A DNA stretch of 47,797 bases from a virus (taxonomy: Duplodnaviria; Heunggongvirae; Uroviricota; Caudoviricetes), in IMG/VR virus record IMGVR_UViG_2571042438_000008; one strand, 5' to 3'. Positions 3,167 through 47,797 of the stretch are shown in pieces. Position numbers and translations under genes: made by a program. The notes beneath the pieces were generated by a model that saw nothing but the letters and a program-made list of their open reading frames with translations, had not been told where the DNA came from and did not search any database. The first letter of the stretch is position 1; each line of letters opens with the position of its first letter.

Positions 3167-3783
3167 TGGCATTCAGAATGAGTGAACAATCACGTACCGT
3201 AAAAATTTATAACCTGCTGGCCGGAACTAATGAGTTTATTGGTGAAGGTGACGCATATATTCCACCTCATACAGGGCTGCCAGCTAATTCTACAGATATC
3301 GCCCCACCGGAAATTCCTGCTGGCTTTGTGGCAGTTTTTAACAGTGAAAATGAATCGTGGAATATTGTTGAAGACCATCGTGGTAAAACGGTCTATGACG
3401 TGGCGTCGGGGGACGCATTGTTTATTTCTGAACTCGGACCGCTACCAGAGAATGTCACCTGGTTGTCGCCAGCAGGGGAGTATCAGAAGTGGGACGGCGT
3501 ATCCTGGGTGAATGATGAGGAAGCAGAAAAACTGTTTCGGATACGGGAAGCGGAAGAGAAAAAGGCAAGGTTGATCCAGGAAGCAACAGATAACATCGCA
3601 ATTCTGCAGGATGCAGTTAATCTTGAAATAGCAACAAACGAGGAAAATTCACAACTGGATTCCTGGAGAAAATACAGAGTATTAGTGAGTAGAATTGACA
3701 CCAGTACAGCTCCGGATATCGTATGGCCAGAGCTGATGAATCAGGGTTATGTTCGGGAGGACGAGCAGATAACTTCAGACTGA
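3166..3783 (+). CDS. Tail fiber assembly protein (gpG/Tfa-like)
   Basis: Start overlaps the fiber stop (TAATG); size and position typical of Tfa chaperones. Confidence 0.65.
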
Positions 3784-4310
3784 AATTTAGTGATGAATGT
3801 TGAATCATCAGGAATATCATGCAATACCAATGCATGAGCACCTATTGTGACATTGTTTCCTATACGCACTTTGCCACCAAGAATGGTGGCATTACAACCA
3901 ATGGTCACATTATGCCCTATAACAATATCCATATCATTAAATTCCCCGCGAAGTCCAATAGTTACTCCGGGCTTAATTGAACAATTTTCACCGATTGTTA
4001 CTTTGTGACCGATAACAACACTGTTGAGATAAGAAATATCAAAGCCTTTCCCTATATTTACAGTTAAAGGGACTGTTACATTATATTTATCAAGAATGAA
4101 ACGTTCTATTTTTCCCGCAATCTTCCGACAGTATCCGCCTTTATCAAAAAGGTATTTGGCTATGCGCCACCAAAATAAATAACGAACCCTTCTATGTTTT
4201 ATTGCGCGAACAATTGCCTTTCGCCAGGAGAAAGGACGCTCGCTACCGATTACTTCATAGTGAATACAGTCTTTAAGTTCATTAATATTCATATCTTTAT
4301 TATTCAGCAT
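3747..4310 (-). CDS. Hexapeptide-repeat (left-handed beta-helix) acetyltransferase, moron-like
   Basis: Repeated [LIV]-G-x-x-x-x hexapeptides ([47 protein letters not shown]); opposite strand to the tail operon. Confidence 0.6.
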
Positions 4311-4725
4311 AAGATAATCATGTGACCAATTATTGTAATAATTTTAATGGTATGTTTCTACTGGCTATCCAGCGTGTCTGATATCCAGTAACAAATCGTC
4401 AACACGGGTGCAATCAAATGGTGAGTGTTAAGACTGACCACTTATTACCAGGTATGAGTGGCCAGCATTAAATCAGAACAGCCCTTTAACTGAACTGGCC
4501 GCGCTGTTAAGGGATGATGTCACCTTATCTTTGAAGCCGGACAGCATATTGCTGAACGATGAGTTTACCGCAGGTTTCTGGCTGGGAATCATTGACTGGA
4601 GTTAGGCCAGTAGTATGATGCTCGCAAAACGAGATCCAATTTAGATCCTTTTACTGGTGGATTATCGTTCGATCAGTGAGAGACTTCGTGCATGACCGAA
4701 AGTGTTGTGGTAGAGTTCTCTTAAA

Positions 4726-4740
4726 ACCACGTAACGTGGT
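4726..4740. promoter_or_regulatory. Repressor-type operator dyad ACCACGTAACGTGGT in the repA upstream region
   Basis: Perfect 5-N5-5 inverted repeat identical in arms to the three dyads in the cI/cro-like intergenic region; followed directly by TATGAT (4741-4746). Confidence 0.5.
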
Positions 4741-4780
4741 TATGATTGTGGGTGTCTGGTTGGAAAGTGACCAGATATGG

Positions 4781-4861
4781 AAACAAAAAGCCCGCAGATA
4801 AATCTGCGGGCTTCTTGCGACATCCACGGAAAACCAACAACTAACCATGGGCGCCTCGACA
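4781..4861 (-). ncRNA. Candidate CopA-like antisense RNA of the repA leader (~80 nt)
   Basis: Minus-strand perfect -10 TATAAT (plus coords 4868-4873) with weak -35; minus-strand intrinsic terminator (10-bp GC-rich stem 4789-4812 followed by a U-run); lies inside a 16-bp inverted repeat of the leader (4823-4838 / 4875-4890). Confidence 0.45.
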
Positions 4862-6685: not shown

Positions 6686-6972
6686 AACATGCAAATATGA
6701 GGTTTGTTATGGAACTTGTACGCAAAACACGCAAAGAGTTCTTGGACCTGTATCGCATGGGAGCTTTCACTTGTGTTGTGGCTACCCAGGACGAAGTGAC
6801 AAAAAGCTGGCGGCTTTTTGCTCTCAATAAAAAAGGGATTGCCGTTTTCATTGAAAAAGCCCGTGGTGGTATCCGCGAATGGGCGGGATTGAATTATGTG
6901 GCTGATTTTTGCGCAGCTATGGGGATTCGTCGCTGGGAAGTCCATATGCCAGGAGTAAAGTCACAAAAATAG
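6682..6972 (+). CDS. Hypothetical protein, translationally coupled to 6386..6685
   Basis: ORF with 4-nt overlap to the upstream gene; no recognisable motif. Confidence 0.3.
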   Translation: MKHANMRFVMELVRKTRKEFLDLYRMGAFTCVVATQDEVTKSWRLFALNKKGIAVFIEKARGGIREWAGLNYVADFCAAMGIRRWEVHMPGVKSQK

Positions 6973-7113
6973 GGCTTTCGCGTCGAAAATGAGGCGAAAC
7001 TGAAAACGAGATTTCATTAACAAATAAGCAACATAAAAAACGGTGGAAAACGCCCAGGAAAACATGATCTTTTGAGCGGATTTTTTAGATCCGACAATGA
7101 ACGGTGATCCGGT

Positions 7114-7141
7114 GGTGCCGATAACGTCCATTATGTTAAAT
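7114..7141. other. Xer (XerC/XerD) site-specific recombination core, dif/cer-like multimer resolution site
   Basis: GGTGCCGATAA-CGTCCA-TTATGTTAAAT; right arm identical to the dif XerD arm, left arm 9/11 to the dif XerC arm, 6-bp spacer. Confidence 0.6.
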
Positions 7142-7216
7142 AGCCCCGTTTTTCTTGAAATTATAACCCACAGGTTATATAGTTAGTGATATAAACTACA
7201 GGTTATAGGATTGAGC

Positions 7217-7564
7217 ATGTGGACGGTACTTTTTAGCCAGCGATTTGACGACTGGCTAAATGAGCAAGAAGACGCTCTTCAGGAAAAGGTTTTGGCTGAT
7301 TTGAAAAAGCTACAGGTTTACGGACCTGAGTTACCCAGGCCATATGCCGATACCGTAAAAGGTTCTCGGTACAAAAATATGAAAGAGCTTCGCGTTCAGT
7401 TTTCTGGCCGTCCGATAAGAGCCTTTTATGCGTTCGATCCGATTCGTCGGGCCATCGTTCTTTGTGCAGGAGACAAAAGTAACGATAAGCGGTTTTATAA
7501 AAAACTGGTGCGTATAGCTGAGGATGAGTTTGCAGCACATCTGAACACACTGGAGAGCAAGTAA
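7217..7564 (+). CDS. Type II toxin, HigB/RelE-like (addiction module killer family)
   Basis: ~115 aa basic protein immediately upstream of, and overlapping (TAATG), an XRE-HTH antitoxin-like gene; AGGA RBS before ATG 7217. Confidence 0.55.
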   Translation: MWTVLFSQRFDDWLNEQEDALQEKVLADLKKLQVYGPELPRPYADTVKGSRYKNMKELRVQFSGRPIRAFYAFDPIRRAIVLCAGDKSNDKRFYKKLVRIAEDEFAAHLNTLESK

Positions 7565-7863
7565 TGAGAACATTAGATGAGGTGATTGCCAGCCGTTCAC
7601 CTGAAAGCCAGGCGCGAATTAAAGAAATGGCAGATGAGATGATTCTTGAGGTCGGCTTGCAGATGATGCGTGAAGAACTCCAGTTATCACAAAAACAGGT
7701 TGCTGAGGCGATGGGTATAAGCCAGCCAGCAGTAACAAAGCTGGAGCAGCGCGGAAATGATTTAAAGCTGGCGACATTAAAGCGTTACGTTGAAGCTATG
7801 GGAGGCAAATTAAGCCTGGATGTTGAGCTTCCTACAGGAAAGCGAGTAGCGTTCCATGTCTAA
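7564..7863 (+). CDS. Type II antitoxin, HigA-like XRE-family HTH
   Basis: HTH segment LSQKQVAEAMGISQPAVTKLE; 99 aa; toxin-first gene order. Confidence 0.6.
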   Translation: MRTLDEVIASRSPESQARIKEMADEMILEVGLQMMREELQLSQKQVAEAMGISQPAVTKLEQRGNDLKLATLKRYVEAMGGKLSLDVELPTGKRVAFHV

Positions 7864-7896
7864 CATAATGTAAGGCCCCATTGGGGCCTTACTTAT

Positions 7897-8181
7897 TTAC
7901 TTACCATTTTTGCGGTTTTTTTCGGACTTCATAAGCTGGCTAACGCGCCCAGGTGTGATATTTAACATGCGGCTTACTTCAGCTTGTGATCCTACTTCCT
8001 CTACTAGCGATGCAACATAGCGAGATTTTCCTGAGGAGGTTAATCCATTATATGTTGCTCGTGCGACTTTTCCCTGAGCTTCTCTCATATCAACTAATGC
8101 CTGAGCAACCTGCTCAAAACCTTTAATTGTTACTTCTGTTAATGCTCGAATAGCATCAATTTCAGATTTTGGTTTAGCCAT
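7897..8181 (-). CDS. Small DNA-binding regulator (C-terminal HTH)
   Basis: C-terminal SQAEVSRMLNITPGRVSQL; divergent from cassette copy 1; dyad just upstream of its start. Confidence 0.45.
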   Translation of the reverse strand: MAKPKSEIDAIRALTEVTIKGFEQVAQALVDMREAQGKVARATYNGLTSSGKSRYVASLVEEVGSQAEVSRMLNITPGRVSQLMKSEKNRKNGK

Positions 8182-8228
8182 TTGGCACCTCCAATTGTTT
8201 AAAATGTGTTAATTGTAAAATTCAGCCG

Positions 8229-8247
8229 ATACCATGTTCAATGGTAT
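8229..8247. promoter_or_regulatory. Dyad ATACCAT-GTTCA-ATGGTAT upstream of the 7897..8181 regulator gene
   Basis: Perfect 7-bp inverted repeat with outer TTCAGC/GCTGAA arms (8221-8259). Confidence 0.35.
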
Positions 8248-8335
8248 ACCATTGCTGAAATGTCTTTTTCAAGACCTTGCCAATAAGCTAAACAAAAATG
8301 TTTAATGTGCAGCCTAAAAAAGCACCAGTCACTAT

Positions 8336-8448
8336 TATTTATATAATTATAGATTTATATAAAAAGTGCTTTACGGGTGGGAAAAAATTTCCTATGGTTA
8401 TACCCGAAACCGAGCGATACCCGCCCTGGTTAAACCGGAGATAACCCG
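8336..8448 (+). promoter_or_regulatory. Promoter-leader cassette, copy 1 (AT-rich dyad motif, -35 TTTACG 8370-8375, 17-nt spacer, -10 TATGGT 8393-8398, conserved leader, GGAGA RBS)
   Basis: ~88 bp near-identical to 17311-17398 and 24189-24276 (two substitutions seen in this copy); sigma70-like hexamers with 17-bp spacing. Confidence 0.55.
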
Positions 8449-8829
8449 ATGAGCATGATTAAAATCCGCAAAAACGCTTTCCTTAAAATTCAAACTATCC
8501 TGGCTGGTTCTGTCGGCGTGATTTGCCGTTCTTCTTCAAGCCGCATCGATGACGGCTACGATGATGAGTATCGTGTGTCCTCGTGCGATGAGGCTTTAAC
8601 CTGGCTGAAGGAGAATCAGGAACGTGCCCAGGTATATCTGGAAACAGAGAACGGCAATCAGATGCTGCGTATTAGCGGTCGTTATGGATTTGAAACTACA
8701 TTCATGGCCTATTTTAATCAGGCTTACTTTGACAAGGAGCTGGCCTGGTACACTGACCGCATGAGCAAAAGCGAGCCAGCCCCGATTACACCGCCGAACA
8801 ATAAACCATTTTTATTCCTCGTTAAGTAA
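8449..8829 (+). CDS. Hypothetical protein (126 aa), first gene after cassette copy 1
   Basis: ORF with GGAGA RBS 9 nt upstream; no recognisable domain. Confidence 0.5.
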   Translation: MSMIKIRKNAFLKIQTILAGSVGVICRSSSSRIDDGYDDEYRVSSCDEALTWLKENQERAQVYLETENGNQMLRISGRYGFETTFMAYFNQAYFDKELAWYTDRMSKSEPAPITPPNNKPFLFLVK

Positions 8830-8892
8830 ACACAATGCGCAAAGTGTCATTTTGACACTTTGCGAGTGTTAATATTGTTCGAGGAGGATGCT

Positions 8893-9166
8893 ATGACGGG
8901 TTATGAATTGAAATTATGGCGTCGTGGGATGAATTGGACGCAGGAGCGAGCCGCTGAAGAGTTTGGGATATCGTTGGCTACATATAAGCGATATGAGAAG
9001 GGTGAGCCGCCGAGGGGGCATTGAGATGGCCATTCGCGTTCTGTCGTTTGACGATATGGTTAAGGATCTTTCACACCTTGATAAAGATGCGATTCTGTTA
9101 AGGCTGCAAACCCTTGTATGGGAAAAGGTTAAAGTGTCGTCAGAATTGGAACAAGGGATCAAATGA
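8893..9166 (+). pseudogene. XRE-type HTH protein gene interrupted by a +1 frame change at a G5 run (9014-9018)
   Basis: GAGGAGG RBS then ATG 8893; HTH-like segment LWRRGMNWTQERAAEEFGISLATYKRYEKGE; frame 1 stops at 9022-9024 and the sequence continues in the +1 frame to 9166; removing one G would give a single 90-aa ORF. Confidence 0.4.
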
Positions 9167-9216
9167 TCCTTTACGGATCGTTTTATGGTGGTGTAATGTA
9201 AGCGCCAGAAAGACAA

Positions 9217-9239
9217 AAACCGCCTTGCCGGGCGGTTTT
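9217..9239. terminator. Hairpin terminator (possibly bidirectional) after the 8449-9166 operon
   Basis: CCGCC-TTGCCG-GGCGG stem-loop flanked by an A5 run upstream and T4 downstream. Confidence 0.5.
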
Positions 9240-9953
9240 CAGTCTGAAATTTAAATCTTGCTTGGTAGGCTGGATTTAAAAAGACACCTCTTGATTGGGG
9301 CGGCTTTCTTGCGTCTAAAGATAATCAAATCTTTTTGCGCCTGCAACCCCTTTTTTACTGGTGCCCATTTCAGACTCACGCTCGCGTCGTTGTCTTTGCC
9401 ACTTCGTTGGGTTCGGTGTTTTTGGGCGAAGTGGCGCGCGGGTATGCGTACAAGGGGAAAGTGTGCTGACGCAAGCCAGGAACAGCGATCTAAACTAAGT
9501 CGAGTCTGAGAAAGGCAGGAGTGCGACAACTCGCCTGTGCTCTATGAGCAGAAGAAGGTATATCAGACGACCAATGGCATGATTGTGGGCCACAGGGCGC
9601 ACACGGCGGCGAAGCATTGGAAACGATGTGGAGCTATCTGGTGGCATGAGTTCCGGTACTCGATCTCGAGCTTTTTTTGATGCTTTTGAGAAGGGGCCGG
9701 AACTCCGGTAAAGGGCACCCTGTATGGGGGGAGGGGGGGTTGTGTCTGAAGGGTGGCTATCGGTTATGGTGGAATTATGATGCGTAGAAAAGCGAGTTTG
9801 CTGCAAGCTATTGGGTCCATTATTTCTTTGTTTCCGGCAGTTGATCATTTTCGTCATATGGCGACACGTTCGAGTATGGGCTTGGCGCGTGACGCTGACG
9901 CTATTCGAAAGGATTTTCAGAAAGTCTCTGGTGTTGATAAGAGAGAAAAGAGT

Positions 9954-9971
9954 AAGGGGCCGTAGCCCCTT
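9954..9971 (-). terminator. Hairpin after the antirepressor gene 3' end
   Basis: AAGGGGC-CGTA-GCCCCTT stem-loop; the minus-strand transcript continues into a U-rich tract. Confidence 0.4.
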
Positions 9972-9975
9972 GTAG

Positions 9976-11175
9976 TTATGGTCTGCTTTTCTGTGCCAGC
10001 TTATCAGCACATGTTTTTATCAGATCCTGTAGTGTCCTGGCTGGCAGGTTTGCATCCAGTACGCTGAGTATGCTGTTGTGATCTGCTTGGTCGACTACTT
10101 TGCCTGTCGGTGGTAGTAGCTTGAGCTGAGGATTCAGGTTTTCGTCAAAGCTGATAAGTGCTCTGGCGTTTCTGAGCAGATCAAGAAGTAAGGCTGATAT
10201 CACATTTTCCTGAGTCATTGCTGGCAGACTTAGCGCCGCTTTGGTTTTCCCTGTTGCCTTGTCAAACTCCTTGATTAGTTCCTTCCTGTAGTTCGGTTCC
10301 GTTAATAGCCGATTATGCTCTGTTGCCGCGCGGATAATCGTTTTTTCCTGGTATAGTCGTTTAGCCAGATCACGCTCGTACTGTGTTTTTAACACGCTGC
10401 TGATAGCGTTAAAGGCTTCAATGTAGGCCAGCTTGATATCTTTCACGCCTGGACCGTCGATGCTCTCCATGAGCAAGGTAAATCCGTCTTTTGTCATGCG
10501 ATAGATTGTTATTTCGCGGTCGCTTCCTTCCAGCGGTCGTTGCTCTTTAAAGAAGTGACGCGCCGCAGCCGTGCGAGGAATGCGTAGCGCATCGATGGCC
10601 ATAACGATGGAATTGTTTGTGGTGCTGAATGCCTGGGCAACATCGGCTGAGGTTGTGAGTGGCTCGTTGTTGCACACTTTAATGTAAAACATCGGTTTGG
10701 CGTTGAGCGTATCGACAACCTCACGAGCATTGCTTGGCGAGACGGTTACGGTCGCGGCCGTTTGCGCGTTCCGGCTGAAATAGCAGTCTTCCAGCCGTTC
10801 GAACACATCCCACGCTTGGTTAGTTTCAAGCATTTTGGCGTGACGTGCAGCCCCGCGTTCTGTCCAGAGAATGAGGGAGCGGGCTTTCGGGGAAATTTGT
10901 AACCCTCTTAAAGATGGTTGCACATTTTGTGAGTTACTTAAAGTAACCCGCAAATTTTGTGAGTGACTTAAAGTCACTCGCAAAGTTTTTAACTCATCGC
11001 CAGCCACTTTGAAAAAATGCTTTCCTTCAATAAAGCGGTTTGCGTTACGTGAGTAATTTTTTTTGATGTTATCAACGTCTGTGCCGTATAGCTTTGCCAG
11101 TAGTTCAGTAGTGATAACGGGGATCTGGTTATGCAGGATAGGCTGTAGGGTGTTAACGGTCGGAAGCGTTTTCAT
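9976..11175 (-). CDS. Antirepressor-like protein (ORF6N/KilA-N-like N-terminus plus Rha-like domain)
   Basis: N-terminal VITTELLAKLYGTDVDNIKKNYSRNANRFIEGKHFFKV and a central Rha-like segment, as recalled; 399 aa. Confidence 0.65.
   Translation of the reverse strand: MKTLPTVNTLQPILHNQIPVITTELLAKLYGTDVDNIKKNYSRNANRFIEGKHFFKVAGDELKTLRVTLSHSQNLRVTLSNSQNVQPSLRGLQISPKARSLILWTERGAARHAKMLETNQAWDVFERLEDCYFSRNAQTAATVTVSPSNAREVVDTLNAKPMFYIKVCNNEPLTTSADVAQAFSTTNNSIVMAIDALRIPRTAAARHFFKEQRPLEGSDREITIYRMTKDGFTLLMESIDGPGVKDIKLAYIEAFNAISSVLKTQYERDLAKRLYQEKTIIRAATEHNRLLTEPNYRKELIKEFDKATGKTKAALSLPAMTQENVISALLLDLLRNARALISFDENLNPQLKLLPPTGKVVDQADHNSILSVLDANLPARTLQDLIKTCADKLAQKSRP
10924..10983. repeat. Two tandem 30-bp repeats inside the antirepressor gene, each carrying a palindrome (GAGTTAC-TTAAA-GTAACCC; GAGTGAC-TTAAA-GTCACTC)
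   Basis: Units 10924-10953 and 10954-10983 differ at 3 positions, two of them compensatory for the inverted repeat; a degenerate third unit lies at ~10893-10923. Confidence 0.7.
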
Positions 11176-23583: not shown

Positions 23584-24171
23584 ATGGAGGCAATTGCATT
23601 GTTTAATCTGATTTATGCAGATCCCCCCTGGGAATACAAAGATAAGTGTAAGGATGGGAATCGTGGAGCTGGTTTTAAGTATCCAACGATGAAAGCTGAG
23701 GATATTGCTCGTATTCCTGTCTGGCAGCTTGCTAATCCTGAATCGTGTTTGTTGGCCATGTGGTGGGTTCCGACTCAGCCAGAAGAAGCGTTGCTGGTGG
23801 TGAAAGCATGGGGATTCAGGCTTATGACCATGAAGGGCTTCACATGGAACAAATGTGGTAGCCGACAACCAGATAAGCTGGTGATGGGGATGGGGCATAT
23901 GACTCGTGCAAACAGTGAAGATTGCTTGTTTGCGGTAAAAGGCAAATTGCCGACCCGCCTTGATGCGGGGATCATTCAGTCGTTTACATCGCCTCGTCTG
24001 GAGCATTCTCGGAAGCCTGATGTGGTTCGTGACAAGCTGGTAAGGCTGTTAGGTGATGTTCCTCGTATTGAGCTGTTTTCTCGCGGTGATTTACCTGATG
24101 GTTGGCATGGCTGGGGCAACCAGTGCAATGGAGGTATCCAGTTGCATGATGCTCTCTGGCAAGTGGCATAA
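23584..24171 (+). CDS. MT-A70-family N6-adenine methyltransferase
   Basis: DPPW motif (LIYADPPWEY) and family-typical N-terminal layout. Confidence 0.8.
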   Translation: MEAIALFNLIYADPPWEYKDKCKDGNRGAGFKYPTMKAEDIARIPVWQLANPESCLLAMWWVPTQPEEALLVVKAWGFRLMTMKGFTWNKCGSRQPDKLVMGMGHMTRANSEDCLFAVKGKLPTRLDAGIIQSFTSPRLEHSRKPDVVRDKLVRLLGDVPRIELFSRGDLPDGWHGWGNQCNGGIQLHDALWQVA

Positions 24172-47261: not shown

Positions 47262-47797
47262 TATCTTTAATGTTAGCTTGTTGGATGTTTTACCTCCTAA
47301 CTTAGCTAGCGATCCCAACGTGATAGCTATGTCGAAAGCTATTGATGATGAACTACAAGCAATTAACAATTTAATATATAAGACAGAAATATATAGCGTT
47401 GTTGATAACCTGGACTCAGTTGTTCTCGATCATTTAGCTTGGCAATGGAATGCTGATACATGGAGGGATAGTTGGCCTGTATTGTTAAAGCGTTCTGTTT
47501 TTAAATCAATAATACGAACAAAGCGAATAAAGGGTACAAGGGCAGCGGTTGAAGATGTAGTAAATAGCTTGGGTGGAGAGGTAAACATAACAGAATGGTT
47601 TGAAACATCACCACCTGGCGAACCATATACAGCCTCAATTGTTGCTTCGATTAACTCTTTTGATGGTGCTGTTCCTTCGAAAGAGATGTTGGAGGATACG
47701 TTAAGAAGTATCAAGAGTGCAAAGTCGGCAAGAACACTATTTACATTTTCGCAAGCAACCAATGTTTCAGGTGGTGTTGGTATTGTCGGTGCTTTCC
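47254..47797 (+). CDS. Baseplate gpI-like protein, 5' part (open at window end; continues at 1..289 through the terminal duplication)
   Basis: ATG 47254 overlapping the gpJ-like stop; ORF not terminated within the window; frame matches 23..289. Confidence 0.65.
   Translation, partial: MADIFNVSLLDVLPPNLASDPNVIAMSKAIDDELQAINNLIYKTEIYSVVDNLDSVVLDHLAWQWNADTWRDSWPVLLKRSVFKSIIRTKRIKGTRAAVEDVVNSLGGEVNITEWFETSPPGEPYTASIVASINSFDGAVPSKEMLEDTLRSIKSAKSARTLFTFSQATNVSGGVGIVGAF
47547..47797. repeat. Terminal direct repeat: 47547..47797 is identical to 1..251
   Basis: Read directly: both begin ggttgaagatgtagtaaatagc and end gtcggtgctttcc. Confidence 0.9.

Follow-up and report, generated by a model that had tools for sequence, protein, structure and literature searches.

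The poly-G and poly-C contingency loci of Neisseria, Haemophilus and Campylobacter carry a homopolymer within the coding sequence, the length of which sets the reading frame, and classical contingency tracts are usually at least 7 nt long. Another well described case is the +1 frameshift of prfB, where an in-frame UGA is closely preceded by an SD-like AGGGGG (the site reads AGGGGG-UAU-CUU-UGA-C) and a +1 shift restores the full frame. Small repressors of the XRE type, among them Aca2, HipB, SinR, P2 C and Aca1, are built from an XRE helix-turn-helix (HTH) core followed by C-terminal helices. The closest described case is a gene on the E. coli plasmid p142_C (NZ_CP048340.1), GZS12_RS26885, that the public PGAP annotation labels 'helix-turn-helix domain-containing protein, frameshifted'.

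We analysed here a window of 47,797 nucleotides of tailed-phage DNA, in which the same gene is interrupted at identical boundaries by the extra G known from p142_C. The intact form of its product, a protein of 90 aa, shares the XRE HTH core and the C-terminal helices with the repressors named above. As in the contingency loci, there is a G homopolymer in a coding sequence, and as in prfB, AGGGGG precedes an in-frame UGA and a shift to the +1 frame would lead to the full-length product. Our analysis makes it very probable that the gene carries a genuine, inherited +1G frameshift of one origin, and that this small XRE-type HTH regulator is no longer functional. That the gene is a frameshifted pseudogene was already known from the PGAP annotation; new is that the lesion is real, has a single origin and is widespread. 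For the split HTH gene the best reading is a single lineage-specific pseudogene, and neither a pair of small genes nor an error or a switch. It is an ordinary pseudogene and its importance reaches little beyond annotation hygiene.

The split gene and its intact relatives

The elements of the locus are collected in Table 1. The initial annotation had described an ORF with an XRE-like HTH that starts at ATG 8893 behind a GAGGAGG ribosome binding site, stops at 9022-9024 after the five G of 9014-9018 and is continued without a stop to 9166 by the +1 frame. All of these elements are found in the sequence, with the ribosome binding site at 8881-8887 and the +1 frame open from 8963 to a TGA at 9164-9166. 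The ribosome binding site shows no variation across a five-genome alignment. The 5' ORF translates into MTGYELKLWRRGMNWTQERAAEEFGISLATYKRYEKGEPPRGH, and this 43-aa piece passes the Pfam HTH_3 (PF01381) gathering cut-off of 23 bits with a score of 31.6 bits, while the repaired 90-aa protein scores 30.5 bits. With one G fewer the locus is indeed a single ORF of 90 aa, as had been proposed, and its product is identical to WP_024171748.1 (p23AR1217C). The two ORFs, although in different frames, are jointly colinear with one intact homolog in an alignment of the 273-nt coding sequence, in which the 46-aa ORF takes up residues 45-90 with most of helix 4 and with helix 5. Furthermore, the repaired protein matches the phrog_6962 profile end to end (1-73 of 73, E=5.8e-45) and aligns end to end with single-ORF homologs of 78-90 aa (25 homologs in the alignment). 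A chance juxtaposition of two ORFs is ruled out by this full-profile match together with the single-ORF homologs. The PHROG annotation assigns no function to phrog_6962.

Table 1. Features of the HTH locus, in window coordinates.
Feature	Position	Strand	Remarks
Lineage-marker SNP T7441	7441	+	inside higB; private to all sampled G5 carriers
Upstream 126-aa gene	8449..8829	+	phrog_8090; syntenic neighbour in E. coli and Salmonella phage-plasmids
Palindrome	8838..8864		perfect 12-3-12, CGCAAAGTGTCA-TTT-TGACACTTTGCG; in the gap between the 126-aa gene and the HTH gene, just upstream of the ribosome binding site
Shine-Dalgarno GAGGAGG	8881..8887	+	5 nt before ATG 8893; read from the sequence
Frameshifted HTH gene	8893..9166	+	pseudogene of a 90-aa XRE-type regulator, phrog_6962
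5' fragment, 43-aa ORF	8893..9024	+	predicted helices 1-3 (HTH core); stop TGA 9022-9024
G5 tract	9014..9018	+	one G of the five is the inserted base
3' fragment, 46-aa ORF	9026..9166	+	start ATG 9026
GC-rich hairpin	9214..9241		A and T runs on its flanks; end of the HTH transcription unit

Base-level alignment of the tract reveals three alleles, GGGGG (G5) in the window and in p142_C, GGGG (G4) in p23AR1217C, and GGGT in ATCC 25922 and a Yersinia phage. The genomes with the latter two alleles each have an intact 273-nt coding sequence at the same place, which reads AGG GGC (Arg-Gly) in the G4 allele and AGG GTC (Arg-Val) in the GGGT allele, the commonest of all. In 71 of the 72 complete E. 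coli RefSeq records with the locus the alignment is one base shorter, and a 66-nt query spanning the G5 allele has an exact match in one of 52 E. coli RefSeq records, that of p142_C. Single-ORF orthologs of 86-90 aa and 67-74% identity are encoded on phage-plasmid-sized contigs of Klebsiella aerogenes, Yokenella, Salmonella and Citrobacter, and more distant relatives of 78-85 aa share the HTH as well as a C-terminal helix motif that is conserved. On these comparisons, the single unsplit ORF found across genera emerges as the ancestral state. The comparison with homologs that the initial annotation had proposed thus places the single ORF as ancestral and the split as derived. It had also held that homologous elements with two separate ORFs of the same boundaries would speak for an ancestral split; such records do exist and are many, but all of them belong to one derived lineage.

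Origin of the extra G in a phage-plasmid lineage

Positions 1-251 and 47547-47797 of the window are an exact terminal overlap of 251 bp, which shows that the contig is circular and has a length of 47,546 bp. The plasmid p142_C is shorter by one base (47,545 bp) and is 99.97% identical over 40.5 kb. p142_C combines lysis genes and genes for a myovirus-type head and tail with those for an IncFII-type RepA, ParA and HigBA, which identifies it as a phage-plasmid. The window is thus a circular E. coli phage-plasmid of about 47.5 kb. Close relatives are known from virions, namely the Yersinia phages vB_YpM_39, 41 and 44, in which the HTH gene is intact. Two names considered for this group of phage-plasmids were discarded, since vB_YpM_HQ103 is an unrelated P2-like phage of 32 kb and pSLy3 is a member of the SSU5 supergroup of about 100 kb. 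The window and p142_C differ by 147 mismatches in their first 7.3 kb, all of them located within about 1250-2500, in the region of the tail-fibre gene, and only 12 differing sites are found in the rest of the genome. This pattern suggests that a host-range determinant was exchanged by recombination.

Homopolymer indels are a frequent type of assembly error, and the initial annotation had accordingly considered that the extra G might be a sequencing or assembly indel. p142_C itself may offer an example of such an error, because its second 'frameshift', in an MT-A70 methyltransferase gene, goes back to one base lost in a C-run. The window does not have this loss: at position 23623 (p142_C 16345) its C-run is one C longer and the ORF is intact with 196 aa. 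This frameshift is private to the p142_C record and is an assembly error or a private mutation. Clustered homopolymer indels are also seen in one further assembly (L039, see below). An error in the single record of the window can, however, scarcely be credited for the extra G in the HTH gene. Exactly this G5 allele is found in 15 distinct records, which stem from different projects and platforms and include metagenome scaffolds. Among them are a second G5 record in PLSDB, pKFS-D13_3 from Ugandan faecal sludge, and eight further G5 loci retrieved from isolate and metagenome assemblies. In a collection of 15 billion proteins, whose contigs come from NCBI, ENA and Logan, 145 contigs (349 index blocks) from isolates and metagenomes encode exactly the 43-aa product, and the exact 46-aa downstream ORF was reported by gene callers on 283 contigs. 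The intact alleles are recorded there on 127 contigs for the Arg-Gly (G4) form and on 836 and at least 1000 contigs for two Arg-Val forms. In addition, all sampled carriers of the G5 allele have in common a private SNP that is linked to it at a distance of 1.5 kb, and this linkage cannot be explained by random error. Based on these population counts and the linked SNP, we reject the error reading.

The haplotypes around the tract were compared over 6900-9800 in 34 related loci, a sample that is biased to long contigs and drawn from several hundred recorded copies. All 15 distinct G5 records (L011 and L030 are one record and were counted once) have one nearly invariant local haplotype with the private T7441, and this haplotype occurs in none of the 13 G4 carriers and none of the six GGGT carriers. 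Over 7500-9800 it equals, the extra G aside, the G4 haplotype of two of the loci (L022 and L009). The three complete G5 genomes differ mutually at 12-71 sites over window positions 7278-47546, compared with 235-311 differing sites between G5 genomes and four non-G5 genomes. Taken together, the haplotypes indicate that the G5 insertion arose once and was inherited vertically by the whole lineage. This lineage makes up about one tenth of the recorded copies of the HTH gene, and the commonness of the allele is due to lineage expansion and not to recurrent mutation. G5 with the linked T7441 is hence a convenient marker for one widespread lineage of this phage-plasmid.

A slippage-prone tract that toggles the expression of the regulator had been suggested as well, which would make it a phase-variable contingency tract with a reversible switch. 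The location of the homopolymer within the coding sequence fits this idea, as do rare other lengths at the G5 tract and at a neighbouring G tract (P0072, P0074, P0049, P0050, P0060). These length variants are each found on at most 11 contigs, and the record with six G comes from an error-prone assembly. Unlike the known contingency loci, the tract is merely 4-5 nt long and is not conserved: the window has G5, its parent G4 and most alleles have GGGT, and the length usual for high-rate slippage is thus absent. Moreover, the G5 allele, as the OFF state, lies on one haplotype on which no G4 is found, whereas G4 occurs on many other backgrounds. No G4 revertant on the G5 haplotype was seen among the 34 loci, a sample from which rare ones could have escaped, and neither were ON and OFF lengths interleaved among the closest relatives. 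When revertants were sought via the HigB protein variant of the lineage, the carriers of the 90-aa form proved to have GGGT on different DNA backgrounds. Because of the haplotype analysis we reject toggling, which is left as a highly improbable account of the locus.

The gene has suffered other, rare and independent lesions in E. coli, each on at most 11 contigs. These include six G at the same tract (P0072, record L039), loss of a G from a GGGT allele (P0074), slips in a nearby AAGGGGGAG tract (P0049, P0050, P0060), and further a 36-nt in-frame deletion, nonsense codons and a short duplication. In L039 a second homopolymer indel lies 50 nt downstream and the upstream gene is shortened, which renders this record unreliable; its G6 is weak evidence for further slippage and for the notion that the tract can change again. 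The frameshifts of P0049, P0050 and P0060 map to another short G-run, which many alleles possess some 20 nt upstream of the G5 tract. The region 9008-9013 reads AAGGGTGAG in the window and AAGGGGGAG in alleles of the ATCC 25922 type.

Consequences of the frameshift

The mutational path may be pictured as follows. A T-to-G substitution would have turned AGG GTC into AGG GGC and created a run of four G, which a single insertion, presumably by replication slippage, would then have extended once to GGGGG (AGG GGG C). The insertion shifts the frame at codon 43 (residue 42/43), with a TGA in frame one codon later, and is carried by a successful lineage. The remaining 43-aa product retains the predicted helices 1-3 and lacks helix 5 as well as helix 4, a long helix by which the XRE fold is completed. 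An AF2 model of the intact protein (mean pLDDT 82.7, block means of 88-96 over residues 1-50) has five helices, H1 3-12, H2 17-24, H3 28-36, H4 41-60 and H5 64-87, and places the frameshift break at the start of H4. Given the predicted loss of helices 4 and 5, the 43-aa product is probably inactive. On this structural prediction, the G5 allele is probably null and the locus a pseudogene. The reading of the initial annotation as a genuine inactivating mutation therefore holds for a real and inherited mutation, and the inactivation itself is what we infer.

Part of the G5 lineage has acquired ISEcp1-blaCTX-M exactly within the dead gene. In this sub-lineage (L012, L014, L016) an IS1380-family transposase and blaCTX-M are inserted at about 9061-9070, in the 3' remnant. 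Through this insertion at one site, a branch of the G5 lineage has become an ESBL-carrying phage-plasmid, and the insertion is consistent with dispensability. The module of about 3 kb, IS1380-family (ISEcp1-type)/blaCTX-M, spans 10179-13214 in L012 and 6495-9530 in L014 and begins at 10179 in L016, at the identical site in each; the module of L014 has an additional DUF6016 ORF.

A split allele could still be functional, either through +1 recoding that yields the 90-aa protein or through reinitiation at UGA-G-AUG that yields two cooperating fragments. The sequence AGGGGG-CAU-UGA-G superficially resembles the +1 site of prfB. A +1 shift might occur at AGG-GGG or at CAU-UGA; AGG is a rare codon in E. 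coli, and tRNA-Arg(CCU) could re-pair on GGG. Reinitiation at ATG 9026 is conceivable from its position, 1 nt past the TGA and with GAGGGGG 7-10 nt upstream, so that both halves might be made. The abundance of the lineage would fit an allele that still works. In contrast to prfB, however, the arrangement is not conserved, there is no slippery CUU-type codon in the P-site, and the spacing from the SD-like sequence to the P-site is zero. Likewise, no stimulatory structure is apparent: searches for a known RNA element or frameshift stimulator gave nothing above the Rfam threshold, and the folding of the downstream RNA is not better than that of shuffled sequence (z = +0.71). A shift would be needed in one derived lineage only and in no homolog, as the Yersinia phages, four further genera and most E. 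coli copies have single ORFs. Furthermore, the break severs the XRE fold between H3 and H4, and the sub-lineage described above tolerates the IS/blaCTX-M insertion within the 3' part. We therefore consider a functional split allele improbable. A weaker variant, which appears slightly more doubtful still, is that the G5 allele is a down-tuned regulator, in which reinitiation or a low-level +1 shift delivers the C-terminal helices or some full-length protein. If this were true for an Aca2-like autorepressor, neighbouring cargo would be derepressed, which could have aided the spread of the lineage including its blaCTX-M branch. The reading that we favour is still that of an inherited null allele.

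The intact regulator and its neighbourhood

The family phrog_6962 comprises uncharacterised small XRE repressors with a faint Aca2-like signature and variable cargo, and it may merit a separate look. Foldseek lists generic small XRE repressors for the intact protein (SinR, HipB, HigA2, Aca2, Aca1 and P2 C), with no fold match at E <= 1e-3. The best PDB sequence match of the family profile is the anti-CRISPR-associated repressor Aca2 (7ezy), a weak match over residues 1-68 with E=5e-4, and the Foldseek comparison with Aca2 is similarly weak (E=0.088, TM 0.53, 30% identity). Among Pfam families, none of the Aca2 type was matched at E <= 1. Aca2 and the family profile have the pattern MT-x-YEL...AA-x-E-x-G-x-S-x-R-[ST]-[WY]..[WY]E-x-G in common. 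A palindrome upstream of the HTH gene and variable neighbouring cargo at distant homologs are further points of resemblance. However, Aca2 is 35 aa longer than the intact protein and differs from it in the C-terminal part, the palindrome is placed between the 126-aa gene and the HTH gene and not upstream of the pair, and the upstream gene is without a known Acr function. The weak resemblance to Aca2 is a lead and not a membership. A type II antitoxin of the HipB, MqsA or HigA kind was also considered and discarded, as the scores for NCBIfam RstR, MqsA and Y4mF are far below their cut-offs and the neighbours of distant homologs are mutually unrelated.

The Salmonella ortholog is preceded by a conserved form of the palindrome core, AAAGTGTCA...TGAYACTTT. 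A standard promoter scan of the + strand found no canonical sigma-70 promoter upstream of the HTH gene, and the idea of an operator over a promoter therefore draws on the position of the palindrome and on its conservation in Salmonella. From these two features we consider it a candidate autoregulatory operator that may overlie the own promoter of the HTH gene, and the intact protein would then be a dimeric repressor that acts at this site. The half-site is not found elsewhere in the window, which thus contains no repeated operator. The hairpin downstream of the gene looks like a bidirectional intrinsic terminator.

The Salmonella copy of the 126-aa gene is 66% identical. Distant homologs of the HTH gene adjoin mutually unrelated genes, among them those for an AAA_15/21 ATPase and an Mrr-type nuclease and a Lar-like gene, and hence the HTH protein is not a dedicated partner of the 126-aa gene. 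The neighbours suggest that the HTH family regulates defence or anti-defence cargo. Distant members are located directly upstream of a defence-system-like AAA_15/AAA_21 ATPase gene, as in the L044 locus (3255-4844), or within a cluster with a Lar-like restriction-alleviation gene and the Mrr-type nuclease, as in the L042 locus (1058-1357 and 3717-4307).

Further downstream, positions 9976-11175 of the minus strand encode an ORF6N/Rha antirepressor as a continuous ORF of 399 aa with the near-repeat LRVTLSHSQN/LRVTLSNSQN. Many relatives have a 380-aa form, and PGAP splits the identical antirepressor sequence of p142_C into a 238-aa gene and a partial pseudogene. The stretch of about 700 nt between the HTH locus and the antirepressor (9250-9975) has little convincing coding capacity, with one ORF of 62-70 aa at 9753-9965. 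It matched no Rfam family, and it might hold a regulatory RNA for the antirepressor. On the other side of the locus, a 94-aa gene on the minus strand (7897-8181, phrog_15590) is transcribed divergently from the 126-aa gene and is missing in four of the related loci (L033 and L035-L037). Its product has an HTH-like C-terminus and a weak signal for HicB-like or sigma-70 region-4 sequences.
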